From a virus (taxonomy: Duplodnaviria > Heunggongvirae > Uroviricota > Caudoviricetes), in the IMG/VR virus record IMGVR_UViG_2713896791_000013: a stretch of 4,516 nucleotides of DNA, one strand, 5' to 3'. Each line of letters starts with the position of its first letter. Position 1 is the stretch's first letter. Made by a program: the position numbers and the translations under genes. The notes below the pieces were generated by a model. The model was not told the DNA's origin. It saw nothing but the letters and a program-made list of their open reading frames with translations, and searched no databases. Below are positions 1 to 4,516 of the stretch, one piece after another.

Positions 1-17
1 ACCTTGGTTTAAGAGAA
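1..17. promoter_or_regulatory. Partial crossover site for a serine invertase (left, cix/gix/hix-like); outer half lies beyond the window
   Basis: Bottom strand reads TTCTCTTAAACC-AA-GGT. This fits the recalled hixL (TTCTTGAAAACC AA GGT...) and gixL (TTCCTGTAAACC GA GGT...) pattern of TTC....AAACC, a 2-bp core, then GGT. The site sits at the outer boundary of the repeat, as in P1. Confidence 0.6.
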
Positions 18-681
18 CTCGGTACCAGCGGTGAAAAGATCCCCCTGTTGAGCACGGCTAACACATGGAGTGCGCGCCAGACTTTCAACGGCGGGATCAC
101 CGGGGCGCTGACAGGGAACGCCGACACCGCGACGAAATTGAAAACAGCCATAAACATTAATGGCGTCAGGTTCGATGGTTCTGGTGACATTAATATCAAT
201 ACTCTGGTATCGCGCGGTCGCGTAACGGCCTTGGAGGCGAATGCACAGGGAACATCCGGGATTCAGCTGTATGAGGCATACAACAATGGCTACCCTTCCC
301 CCTATGGCAATGTGCTTCACCTTAAAGGTGCCACCGCTGCTGGCGAAGGTGAGTTATTCATTGGCTGGAGTGGCACGAGCGGTGCCCATGCGCCCGTACA
401 TATCCGTTCGCGGCGGGATACTGATTCTGCCAACTGGTCTGAATGGGCGCAGGTCTATACGTCAAAAGATTCAATTCCCGGCGTCAATGCCAAAGGGGAT
501 CAGGATACTTCCGGCAATGCTGCTACGGCGACCAGATTGCAGACGGCGCGCACTATTAACGGTGTTTCGTTTGATGGTTCTAAAAACATTGAGCTAACGG
601 CTGAAAATTTAAATCTTGAGCAAACCGTAGAACTAGCCGCTGGATCATTGCAGAAAAACCAGAACGGCGCGGATATTCCTG
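1..681. repeat. Left inverted repeat (IR-L), 681 bp, coding for the shared part of the tail fibre
   Basis: Reverse complement of 3836..4516, checked directly at both ends. Three overlapping frames give identical mirrored ORF translations (9..320 with 4197..4508, 241..597 with 3920..4276, and the main fibre frame), which implies nucleotide identity throughout. First mismatch is at 682 (g) versus the complement of 3835 (a). Confidence 0.9.
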
Positions 682-1562
682 GAAAAGATACCTTCACTAA
701 AAATATTGGTGCATGTCGCGCTTTTCACAGTTCTATTAGTACAGGTGCAGGGAACTGGACAACGGCACAATTGATTGAATGGCTGGATTCTCAAGGGGCA
801 TTCAATCACCCATACTGGATGTGCAAATGTTCATGGTCATACGGCAATAATAAAATTATAACCGATACTGGCTGTGGAACTATTCATCTTGCAGGTTGCG
901 TTGTTGAGGTTATGGGTAATAAAGGTGCCATGACCATCCGTGTAACAACGCCAAGCACTTCCACCGGTGGCGGAACCACTAATGCGCAATTTACGTATAT
1001 AAACCACGGTGGAGATTACGCACCAGGCTGGCGGCGTGACTACAGTACCAAAAATCAGCAGCCTGCATTTGCTTTAGGGCAGACAGGAAGCACTGTTGGA
1101 AATGACAAAGCTGTTGGATGGAACTCAATTAGTGGCGTTTATAATGCGACTATTGGTGGAGCATCAACATTGATTCTTCACTTTAATATGAATGCGGGGA
1201 GTTGCCCTGCTGTTCAGTTCCGTGTGAATTATAAAAATGGCGGTATTTTTTATCGTTCAGCGCGAGATGGTTACGGATTCGAAGCTGACTGGTCAGAATT
1301 CTACACCACAACACGTAAGCCATCAGCGGGAGATGTTGGTGCATATACCAAAGCAGAATGTAATTCACGATTTATTACAGGTATTCGATTAGGTACAAAA
1401 TCGTCAGTGCAAACATGGAATGGTCCTGGTTGGAACGATAAATCTGGTTATGTTGTTACTGCCTCAATCAACTCAAATAAGGACGAACTTATTGATACAA
1501 CTCAGGCAAGACCTGTGCAGTATTGTATCAATGGCACTTGGTATAACGCGGGAAGTATTTAA
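3..1562 (+). CDS. Tail fibre protein, C-terminal portion, variant A (5'-partial). Shared region is encoded in IR-L; variant-specific receptor-binding domain from 682.
   Basis: Long ORF ending at TAA 1560..1562. The track's 'M' at 48 is a TTG codon, and the frame has no stop back to nt 3, so the gene starts upstream of the window. Contains the fibre-like repeat motif GNA.TAT.L.TA..INGV.FDGS twice. Followed 2 nt later by a chaperone gene. Confidence 0.85.
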
Positions 1563-1564
1563 TT

Positions 1565-2098
1565 ATGCAGCATTTGAAAAACATCAGATCCGGAAATCCA
1601 AAAACTGTTGAACAATATGAATTGACGCGACAATTCGGTGTTGTCTGGTTGTATTCTGAGGACGATAAAAACTGGTATGAGGAACAAAAGAACTTTCAGG
1701 ATGACACTATAAAAATTGCTTACACATCAGATGGAATTATTGTGGCTATAGATAAAGACGTATCTACAATAAATCCAGAAGGTTTAAGCGTTGTTGAGGT
1801 TGCTGACATTACTGCAAATCGCCGTGCTGACATTTCGGGTAAATGGATGTTCAAAGATGGCGTAGTGATAAAGCGAACTTATACCGAGGAGGAACAGAGG
1901 CAGCAGGCAGAGAATGAAAAACAAAGCCTGTTGCAACTTGTCAGGGATAAAACCCAGCTATGGGACTCACAGCTACGGCTGGGTATCATTTCAGACGAGA
2001 ATAAACAAAAATTAATCGAGTGGATGCTCTATGCGCAGAAAGTCGAATCTACAGACACCTCCAGCCTGCCAGTAACGTTTCCCGAACAACCAGAATGA
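1565..2098 (+). CDS. Tail fibre assembly chaperone (Mu U / P1 U / Tfa family), cognate to variant A
   Basis: 177-aa ORF with ATG at 1565, 2 nt after the fibre stop, and a GGGAAG Shine-Dalgarno-like sequence at 1550..1555. N-terminus MQHLKNI..GN.KT.EQYELT...W.YSED.KNWYEE is recognised from memory as typical of enterobacterial phage tail-fibre assembly proteins. Paralogous to the 2126..2653 ORF. Confidence 0.85.
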
Positions 2099-2125: not shown

Positions 2126-2653
2126 TTACTCTGGTTTTTGTGGCCATTCTGGCTTTGCCGTATCCACGCGGCTGACCAGAACGCTGTAGCGTTCCCAGGC
2201 TTCCAGTCGTGTACGTTCCTCATCTGTTGCCATATTCAGCCTGACAGCGCGCTCCAGTGGCTGAATAACGCTTTCCGCATCGGAAAGTAACGCGGCCTTT
2301 TGTGATTCGGCCTGTTGTTGCTGTTCTTCTGCCGTATAAATCCGTTTAACCACAGCTCCGTCCTTAAACATCCACTTACCGGAATCATCGGCCCGACGAT
2401 TGGCTGTTATATCGGGGACTTCAACAACGCTAAAGCCTTCAGGATTAAGTGTGGAGGCATCTTTAGTGATGGCTACAATAATATTATTTTCATCGTAAAC
2501 AATCTTTATTGTGTCTGGCTGAAAATTCTTTACCTCTTCATACCAGTTCTTCCCGTCTTCAGAGTAAAGCCAGATAACTCCGTGCTTCTTTGTTAACTCA
2601 TACTGCTCCGGTGTTTTAGCATTACCAATTTTTATGTTCTTTAAGTGGATCAT
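2126..2653 (-). CDS. Tail fibre assembly chaperone (Mu U' / P1 U' / Tfa family), cognate to variant B
   Basis: 175-aa ORF on the minus strand, with its ATG (2651..2653) 1 nt after the variant B fibre stop (2655..2657). About 74% identical to the 1565..2098 product over the first ~123 residues (counted by hand); the last ~55 residues are divergent. Confidence 0.85.
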
Positions 2654-2654
2654 A

Positions 2655-4514
2655 TTAAACGCTCGCTACATTATACCAGGTGCCATTTATATATTTTTGA
2701 ACGGGTCTGTAATAAACGCCAGCTATATTATCGGCAGAATTGGACCCTGTATCCTGAACATTTATACCAGACAATACATGACCTGAAGGGCACTGGAAGT
2801 TCCATGTTTGCCAGTTGTTCACACCATAATATTGCTGTGAGCCAAGCCGAACATCTTTCACATATCGGGAATCAATGTTACCCCAGTTGCTTGGTTGTAT
2901 CTGACCGTTTACAGCAAATATCACCGAGTTATCTGTATTTCGCTGACTATAGAAATGCCAGCCTGAATCATCACCAAGCTCTGCAACAGTTGGTCTTGAC
3001 GAATTTCCCCACAAGTTAAATGATGCATTACGGGCAGCGGTATTTGCACTTGAAAGTGTGAAGAACTTACTTTCCCCAGCCTGAATACCCTTTAATGATC
3101 TTGCTGAACCATTTATAAAGCGGAATACATGCACACCATTAGCATAAGCATCCAGCACCCCATCACCATTTTGTTTAAACCCGGTATCGTTATCTCCTAA
3201 AACTATTGAATTTCCACCCAGGGCATTAGCCGTTCCAATCCCCAGATTTCCGCTAAAAATGGCATTAATACCGAATATTGAGTGAGAACAATAAAACCCT
3301 CGCCCATTGTTAAAATCCAGAATGGCTTGTGCGTTCGTGCTTTCTGTCGCGGGATTAGTTGCTCCCCACTTATATGTTGTTTGACCGACGGTATAATCCT
3401 GAGTTGGAACAATAACCGTTAGCCCTTCTTCAGCAGAAACCCGCACAGGAAAAGCCCTGCCTTCAACGTAAAAAACGCTGCATACATCATCTTCTTTAAG
3501 GCTTGTTACAATGGAATGGATTGCGCGCTCATTAGTCTGATACGTCGAAAAATAACCTGCCGCATATGAACCACGATCAGTCCAGCCACCAGGCATTACC
3601 ATTCCATTGAATTCGCAGTTATTCATTTCGTAATTACCACCGGCAGATGTGGTCGTTATAATCACTCTGGAAGCCAGCTCGCCAGTGCTGCCTGTGGAAC
3701 GCTGGAAAATAACTGGATACCACTTTCCACCAACAGCATTAGACGGCGCGTTAAATACGTACTGCCGCATTCCTTTTTTCTTATCCACCTCGCCTTTGCT
3801 GTAAACATTAATGTTACTCAGGAAGCGATCTTTATCAGGAATATCCGCGCCGTTCTGGTTTTTCTGCAATGATCCAGCGGCTAGTTCTACGGTTTGCTCA
3901 AGATTTAAATTTTCAGCCGTTAGCTCAATGTTTTTAGAACCATCAAACGAAACACCGTTAATAGTGCGCGCCGTCTGCAATCTGGTCGCCGTAGCAGCAT
4001 TGCCGGAAGTATCCTGATCCCCTTTGGCATTGACGCCGGGAATTGAATCTTTTGACGTATAGACCTGCGCCCATTCAGACCAGTTGGCAGAATCAGTATC
4101 CCGCCGCGAACGGATATGTACGGGCGCATGGGCACCGCTCGTGCCACTCCAGCCAATGAATAACTCACCTTCGCCAGCAGCGGTGGCACCTTTAAGGTGA
4201 AGCACATTGCCATAGGGGGAAGGGTAGCCATTGTTGTATGCCTCATACAGCTGAATCCCGGATGTTCCCTGTGCATTCGCCTCCAAGGCCGTTACGCGAC
4301 CGCGCGATACCAGAGTATTGATATTAATGTCACCAGAACCATCGAACCTGACGCCATTAATGTTTATGGCTGTTTTCAATTTCGTCGCGGTGTCGGCGTT
4401 CCCTGTCAGCGCCCCGGTGATCCCGCCGTTGAAAGTCTGGCGCGCACTCCATGTGTTAGCCGTGCTCAACAGGGGGATCTTTTCACCGCTGGTACCGAGT
4501 TCTCTTAAACCAAG
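2655..4514 (-). CDS. Tail fibre protein, C-terminal portion, variant B (5'-partial). Shared region is encoded in IR-R; variant-specific domain 2658..3835.
   Basis: Long minus-strand ORF ending at TAA (complement of 2655..2657). Identical to variant A through residue P211 of the track translation, then unrelated. Frame is open to the window edge; the track start at 4469 is TTG. Variable domain is about 100 aa longer than A. Confidence 0.85.
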
Positions 4515-4516
4515 GT
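3836..4516. repeat. Right inverted repeat (IR-R), 681 bp, mirror of IR-L
   Basis: Same evidence as IR-L; position p on the left corresponds to 4517-p on the right. Confidence 0.9.
4500..4516. promoter_or_regulatory. Partial crossover site for a serine invertase (right), inverted relative to the left site
   Basis: Top strand reads TTCTCTTAAACC-AA-GGT at 4500..4516. The core dinucleotide is AA here and TT at the left end, the inverted orientation needed for inversion rather than deletion. Confidence 0.6.

Follow-up and report, generated by a model that had tools for sequence, protein, structure and literature searches.

The window, by which is meant the whole 4,516-nucleotide stretch of viral DNA analysed here (IMG/VR record IMGVR_UViG_2713896791_000013), carries the same arrangement on each of its strands. 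On both there is a promoterless 3' part of a tail-fibre gene, open toward the end of the segment, and after it a tail-fibre assembly chaperone gene of its own, which matches Caudo_TAP. The two fibre parts begin with the same sequence, which lies as an inverted repeat at the two ends of the window, and then continue into different tips. The parts are the following:

1-17, no strand: inner half of the crossover site cixL, including the central crossover position (between 4 and 5); its outer half lies outside the window
1-681, plus strand: left inverted-repeat arm, coding for residues about 479-704 of the fibre protein S; shaft with two Phage_fiber_2-like repeats
648-680, plus strand: junction box of 11 codons; mirror copy at 3837-3869 on the minus strand
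681-710, plus strand: conserved start of tip a; the tip-b counterpart is at 3807-3836 on the minus strand
681-1562, plus strand: tip a, a receptor-binding C-terminus of the Mu S'/P1 Sv' type, 293 amino acids plus stop (Pfam gp37_C)
1565-2098, plus strand: tail-fibre assembly chaperone of tip a, P1 U' type, 177 amino acids (Caudo_TAP, E = 1.6e-35)
2102-2121, no strand: G+C-rich hairpin between the convergent chaperone genes, terminator-like by consensus match (AAGGCCCGCTATCGGGCCTT, then a T-run)
2126-2653, minus strand: tail-fibre assembly chaperone of tip b, P1/Mu U type, 175 amino acids (Caudo_TAP, E = 2.3e-37)
2655-3836, minus strand: tip b, the alternative receptor-binding C-terminus, 393 amino acids plus stop; 2700-3821 has no P1 counterpart
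3836-4516, minus strand: right inverted-repeat arm, the same 226 codons
4500-4516, no strand: inner half of the crossover site cixR; its outer half, TTATCCAATACC, lies outside the window in the constant part of gene S

Both tips have relatives of known structure. Tip a aligns with the solved Mu S' fibre 8JU3 (an entry that belongs to Mori et al. 2024) from the junction motif through to the C-terminus, with E = 1.8e-183 in phmmer, and its DNA is 81-89% identical to that of Mu and P1. The last ~95 amino acids of tip b align with the C-terminus of Mu S in 5YVQ.

The chaperone genes are paralogues of each other. Positions 1636-1911 and 2307-2582 are 71% complementary over 276 nt, and the chaperones resemble each other far more than do their tips. 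The hairpin between the two genes is likely a bidirectional terminator common to both orientations of the segment; its T-run is on the plus strand, and an A-rich stretch lies upstream.

Within the shaft, a unit of ~29 residues occurs twice per arm, at about 114-200 and 510-597 of the window and likewise in the other arm. Some homologues (P0148, for example) have extra copies of it. Differences in the number of copies seem to be what makes the shaft longer or shorter.

The window is the complete Cin/cix invertible C-segment of a P1-like plasmid prophage, a host-range switch. Two E. coli plasmids of ~92 kb, pUTAK-19-1 and pUTAK-25-1, match it over its whole length at 100%, with 2 mismatches to pUTAK-19-1. 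A dozen further plasmids match at 98-99.6%, and in all ~400 P1-like plasmids gave matches. The C-segment of P1 itself is ~89% identical across 71-74% of the length of the window.

The invertase gene lies outside the window: in the matching pUTAK plasmids cin ends 1 nt before window position 1. It codes for a Cin homologue of 186 amino acids (Resolvase plus HTH_7) that is 97.9% identical to P1 Cin. A putative recombinational enhancer can be placed by its position in P1, within the 5' part of cin, where the matching plasmid has 68/72 identical nucleotides.

The crossover sites are those of P1. The 26-bp cixL of the matching plasmid, CAATCCTAAACC followed by TTGGTTTAAGAGAA, is exactly P1 cixL, and cixR, which codes for ...VIQYLGLRE... 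of S, is likewise identical to its P1 counterpart. The position of the crossover itself, at window 4/5 and its mirror, was placed by homology to the annotation of the P1 record.

Both orientations of the segment occur in sibling plasmids, and this was observed in two independent pairs. One is pUTAK-19-1 with pUTAK-25-1, whose flanks are 100% identical and whose core of 3.1 kb is an exact reverse complement. The other is pRHB39-C21_3 with pRHB39-C17_3, both from one farm; here too the flanks are 100% identical and the core is an exact reverse complement. The S gene changes with the orientation: its product has 1097 amino acids in pUTAK-19-1, where it ends in the minus-strand tip, and 997 in pUTAK-25-1, where it ends in the plus-strand tip. 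Up to residue 704 the two proteins are identical, which bears out the original prediction that both tips are joined in frame to one scaffold. The constant N-terminal part of S, 478 residues upstream of cixR, is outside the window.

Given perfect repeats of 681 nt, RecA too could invert the segment. The plasmids have one natural internal marker by which the place of exchange can be mapped. At position 587 (mirror 3930) the window has a C in both arms; pUTAK-19-1 and pUTAK-25-1 have a T in the arm on the side of tip a and a C in the arm on the side of tip b. The marker is linked to tip a in both pUTAK orientations, which shows no more than that exchange took place outside 587.

A system with multiple inversions, like Min of p15B or the shufflons, was also considered and does not fit. 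It would have more than two crossover sites within the segment, and in a scan of the window for additional ones no internal 26-mer reached 17/26 to either cix or gix.

The inner edge of the inverted repeat is sharp. When the window is compared without gaps to its own reverse complement, there are 0 mismatches over positions 1-681, and the first ones occur at 682, 683, 690 and 691. A repeat search gives arms of 1-695 and 3822-4516 at 99%. Counted per 20 nt, identity is 20/20 up to 680, 12/20 at 681-700 and 10/20 at 701-720, after which it drops to 1-8/20, the background. The stretch 682-720 is still more similar than that: 21 of its 39 nucleotides match, where the in-register background is 22.7% (binomial P = 2e-5), and 0 of 740 background windows of 39 nt are as similar. 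On the two sides the peptide just past the edge reads (G/D)KD(T/R)F(T/L)(K/S)NI.

So far the original prediction described the edge correctly. It had placed the end of perfect identity at 681, on the first base of a codon (GGA Gly on the plus strand, GAT Asp on the minus strand), followed by patchy similarity, (G/D)KD(T/R)F in protein, and then by unrelated sequence. In fact the reading frame stays open all the way to the left edge of the window, and the TTG at 48 is no start but a product of how open reading frames were listed. What had been called residue ~211 is therefore residue 704/705 of an S protein of 997 or 1097 amino acids.

The meaning attached to the edge did not survive as well. 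Position 681 had been taken as a fusion point within a codon, at which the variable part is spliced onto the constant part. It is no DNA switching joint, because the cix crossover sites sit at the ends of the window, with the 478 constant residues beyond; it marks where two alternative coding sequences stop being the same. Its location inside a codon is incidental as well, because in three close relatives (pRHB39, the Salmonella plasmid pGMI14-002_2 and pE16EC0256-4) the identity of the arms stops at 679, in a Pro codon whose third base differs between the two sides (CCA, CCT). That 681 falls within a codon merely reflects the first G common to the codons for Gly and Asp, and has no significance. 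The meaningful boundary is the one between Pro704 and the residue that follows.

Protein structure prediction has little to say on where a fold begins. AlphaFold2 monomer models of the two fibre halves, made from alignments of 14 and 11 homologues, have a mean pLDDT of 36.5 and 35.7, which is too poor for locating a fold boundary. In both of these low-confidence models the first stretch above pLDDT 50 starts 15-20 residues past the junction.

The explanation considered highly probable is that the window is an invertible C-segment of the P1 family, and that 681 is the start of the tip cassettes, directly after a conserved box. Cin, encoded immediately outside one end, would recombine the cix sites, upon which the whole 4.5-kb segment flips. 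Beyond the other end lies the constant 5' part of S, which would then be continued by the plus-strand half or by the minus-strand half. Both halves would provide the same 226-residue piece of shaft, and each its own receptor-binding tip and its own chaperone. Co-resident prophages may exchange tips by homologous recombination, for which the box and the arms would supply the homology. The two arms would then be homogenised, through general recombination or gene conversion, up to the point where homology ends, and this would leave the sharp edge at 681.

The box is part of a longer junction motif that is found on both strands, at 648-710 and its mirror. It reads (L/A)xK(D/N)QNGADIP, followed by x(K/P)xxFxxN(I/L)G. 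The contexts in which it occurs were collected by searching proteins with each tip, extended upstream by 40 residues, as the query. Tip a turns up on shafts of the P1 type, the Mu type (486 amino acids) and the P2 type. Tip b is found on P1-type shafts, on Mu-type shafts (586 amino acids), on P2-type GpH (699-751 amino acids, PF12571) and on a P2/P1 hybrid. In all shaft contexts of tip a the box is invariant, and for tip b it is nearly so. Divergence between the tips begins directly after the box. For a given tip, the sequence upstream of the box is specific to the context (e.g. ...ELAAGS, ...NQASGA, ...AYDNAEKR), and the tip itself comes after the box unaltered.

The DNA shows the same picture. 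A stretch of ~31 nt, CAGAAAAACCAGAACGGCGC(G/A)GATATTCC(T/A)G, is near-invariant while both of its flanks differ. This holds for the two arms of the window, for Mu S' and two plasmids, and for two chromosomal loci, one with a P2-like fibre and the other with a second invertible segment. Mu-type phages give megablast matches to tip a that begin at 640-646, and the matches of E. coli chromosomal prophages to tip b begin at the window equivalent of 646-651. In viral contigs, the exact 20-nt core has at least 113 usable occurrences, which combine at least 12 upstream classes with at least about 19 downstream classes in at least 28 ways.

A scan with a degenerate back-translation of the peptide widens this further. 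The peptide is found in at least 15 synonymous DNA variants, with at least 25 different continuations, and nearly all of the continuations listed begin with x(K/P)xxFxxN(I/L)G. Given that many synonymous variants, the constraint on the peptide is primary.

This changes the reading of the similarity beyond 681. The original prediction had it decaying away from an old recombination joint. It is instead the conserved second half of the junction motif (xKDxFxxNI) and no eroded edge of a repeat, since xKxxFxxN(I/L)G is common to many unrelated combinations of shaft and tip. The box itself appears, from these comparisons, to mark the junction of shaft and tip throughout this superfamily of tail fibres.

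One plasmid record departs from this. In the tip-b arm of pE16EC0256-4 (about 5363-5368 of its locus, equivalent to 653-657 of the window) an extra A in the A-run of the box shifts the frame, and S is annotated there as two coding sequences. The extra A may be a real slip that inactivates the gene, or else an error made in sequencing the homopolymer.

It has also been considered whether the DNA of the box is conserved for a purpose of its own. In this view the ~31-nt box, together with the homogenised arms, would be a selected 'landing pad', with which P1-type phage-plasmids capture tips from co-resident Mu-type and P2-type prophages through recombination at short homology. This is a tentative idea, and it is rather more doubtful than not. 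If it is true, the conservation of the DNA of the box in E. coli elements is kept for exchange, and goes beyond what would follow as a by-product of the peptide.

To see how far the edge moves among relatives, both arms plus tips were aligned for 13 related elements and Mu, which between them have four classes of tip. Where tip a is paired with tip b (the window, pUTAK, pRHB39, the Salmonella plasmid and pE16EC0256-4), sustained divergence starts from about 680-682. Where a Mu-S-type tip is present (P1, D6, E. albertii and E. fergusonii), it starts from ~617, and with the side-tail-fibre-type tip of JL22 it starts from ~593. The breakpoint is thus not fixed among related cassettes; it is at 681, ~617 or ~593 depending on the pair of tips. 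An arm extends as far as the two resident cassettes are homologous.

The C-segment of phage JL22 (3600-5300 of its locus) is about 1 kb longer. Beside the side-tail-fibre-type tip and a Tfa-type chaperone it contains sacF, a gene for a serine acetyltransferase, which means that cargo unrelated to fibres can sit in an invertible segment.

The gix site of Mu aligns at ~617. In another account of the inner boundary, it might be a relic of an ancestral gix or cix site, in which case an older Mu-like segment with short repeats is nested within the larger one, and 681 is an old invertase joint. The crossover site of Mu does lie within coding sequence, in FIQNLGLQE, directly after NGADIPNKPL, and the tips of the window start with the homologous peptide positions after the same NGADIP. 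With a Mu-S-type tip present, as in P1 and D6, the arms end exactly at the place where Mu gix aligns. In addition, tip b has TGTTTACAGCAA (3796-3807, minus strand), which agrees in 10/12 positions with the Mu gix half-site GGTTTACAGGAA. This half-site, however, has no partner and is out of register with the peptide alignment, and it is probably there by chance.

A direct search argues the same way. None of the 26-mers overlapping 630-730, in either arm, scores above 14/26 to cix or gix; scores of at least 14 are found at 33 of ~4430 window positions, with about one expected by chance in the region tested. Furthermore, Mu S' has its true gix and then, 20 codons later, a second box, from which it follows that the box is a separate copy of the motif and not the position of gix. 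The box and motif are also already present in P2-type fibres, which are not invertible. A relic of this kind is improbable. What remains by far the better account is that of the tip cassettes that start after a conserved box.

These cassettes move. Compared to P1, window positions 2700-3821 have no counterpart, while the remainder aligns at 87-96%. Those same positions have 94-97% protein identity to tips on P2-type GpH and Mu-type S fibres. Tip b was therefore replaced and did not diverge, as it has no P1 counterpart yet matches so closely elsewhere. The original prediction had left both options standing, and of the two only replacement holds.

Tip b has been seen in two chromosomal settings as well. 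A P2-like chromosomal locus has it on a fixed P2-type fibre. A chromosomal prophage of E. coli 95JB1 (2299-7217 of its locus) has it unfused, beside a recombinase of 200 amino acids, in the layout tip, chaperone, opposed chaperone, opposed fibre. The 95JB1 locus looks like another invertible segment.

The arms on either side of these tips tend to be more alike within one element than between elements. Over positions 1-580, six lineages have 0-2 differences between the two arms of a record, three have 11-14, and D6 has 96. Between records, the median number of differences from arm to arm is 31-47. In 8/10 lineages the nearest neighbour of each arm is its own partner. Such differences as remain within a record cluster toward the inner end.

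The most telling comparison is between the Salmonella plasmid and pE16EC0256-4. Both carry tip b, and their two copies of it differ at 1 of 318 nt. In the Salmonella plasmid, the b-side arm over 401-681 has 6 differences to the window-type donor and 23 to its own partner arm. In pE16EC0256-4 the same stretch has 2 differences to the partner arm and 51 to the donor type. Positions 489-681 are thus donor-like in the one, and converted to the partner arm in the other. Such a pattern is expected of a conversion tract that extends as far as the box.

The original prediction, that the repeats are kept identical by gene conversion, is supported by the 0-14 differences within most records against the medians between records, and by this pair of plasmids. 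The arms evolve in concert, and from patterns in the sequences of 13 records we infer that gene conversion is what does this.

A simpler possibility is that the arms are identical because they were duplicated recently, with no ongoing homogenisation, and that the boundary is just the edge of the duplication. Taken alone, the perfect arms of the window and of several close relatives are compatible with a young duplication. But lineages whose arms are up to ~17% apart from each other still have arms that are internally identical or near-identical. There are also partial states, in that the arm differences of Salmonella, E. fergusonii and P1 are confined to the region by the inner end, and the same tip adjoins a converted stretch of arm in one case and an unconverted one in another. 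Near-identical arms across lineages, partial states and such stretches together imply repeated exchange between arms. A single recent duplication is very unlikely, and repeated homogenisation up to the end of homology is preferred.

Homogenisation is lineage-specific and not obligatory. The arms of D6 are only 83% alike and are mosaic, each of them being closer to the arms of other plasmids than to its partner. One arm of P7 lacks ~280 nt. D6, P7 and Mu show that function does not depend on identical arms.

The perfect repeat could in principle also be an artefact of assembly, or the pattern could come from targeted hypermutation by a diversity-generating retroelement. The superficial appearance of a constant and a variable part would fit, and nothing beyond that does. 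The same architecture is present in many independent complete plasmid and phage records, P1 included, and the window codes for parts of fibres and chaperones only. The tips are unrelated past 720 in a way that is not adenine-specific, the differences at 681-723 involve all four bases, and the tips match distinct natural cassettes elsewhere. The chance that either explanation is right is negligible, and this leaves the P1-family segment with its exchangeable tips in place.

None of this alters the textbook picture of the host-range switch of P1, and its practical value is modest but real. The natural splice point of shaft and tip is pinned to one residue boundary (…QNGADIP / xKDxF…) that is common to fibres of the P1, Mu and P2 types. 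This boundary is the obvious place to graft tips when P1-based transducing particles are engineered. It is also documented that P1-like plasmid prophages carry a tip that P1 itself does not have.

The exchange of fibre cassettes is not new. Swapping at conserved motifs is the established picture of tail-fibre evolution, and it was reportedly described by Haggard-Ljungquist et al. 1992, Sandmeier et al. 1992, Sandmeier 1994 and Tetart et al. 1998. The 0.6-kb repeats of P1 are likewise said to have been reported in the primary P1 papers (Iida et al. 1982; Hiestand-Nauer & Iida 1983; Lobocka et al. 2004), the first of them in the 1980s.

The system found here is already known as the C-segment of P1 (AF234172 / NC_005856). 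In both, the order is cin, cixL, an Sv'-type tip, U', U, a second tip, cixR and Sc; the annotation of the P1 record itself gives cin, cixL, Sv', U', U, Sv, cixR. The cix sites are identical, Cin is identical at the 97.9% given above, and in both cases the crossover sites enclose long inverted repeats that belong to gene S. Unlike those of the window, the arms of P1 are about 629-636 nt long and 98% alike, and they end at about the window equivalent of 617. They end there because the second tip of P1 is of the Mu-S type. The second tip of the window is a different cassette that shares 64 more nucleotides, and its arms therefore reach 681. The window departs from P1 in this second tip, and the extra 64 nt of arm follow from it.

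The G-segment of Mu (Gin/gix) is similar in that S/S' tips and U/U' chaperones are flipped by a serine invertase, and it has the NGADIP box as well. Its inverted repeat, however, is only 34-41 nt, and the crossover site itself is the junction of constant and variable parts. In the window the crossover sites are 681 nt further out, and there is none at the junction. GpH fibres of the P2 type carry tip b at 94-97%, joined through the box LQK(N/D)QNGADIP as it is here, but in the P2-type contexts examined the fibre is fixed and not invertible, and there is no long duplicated shaft.
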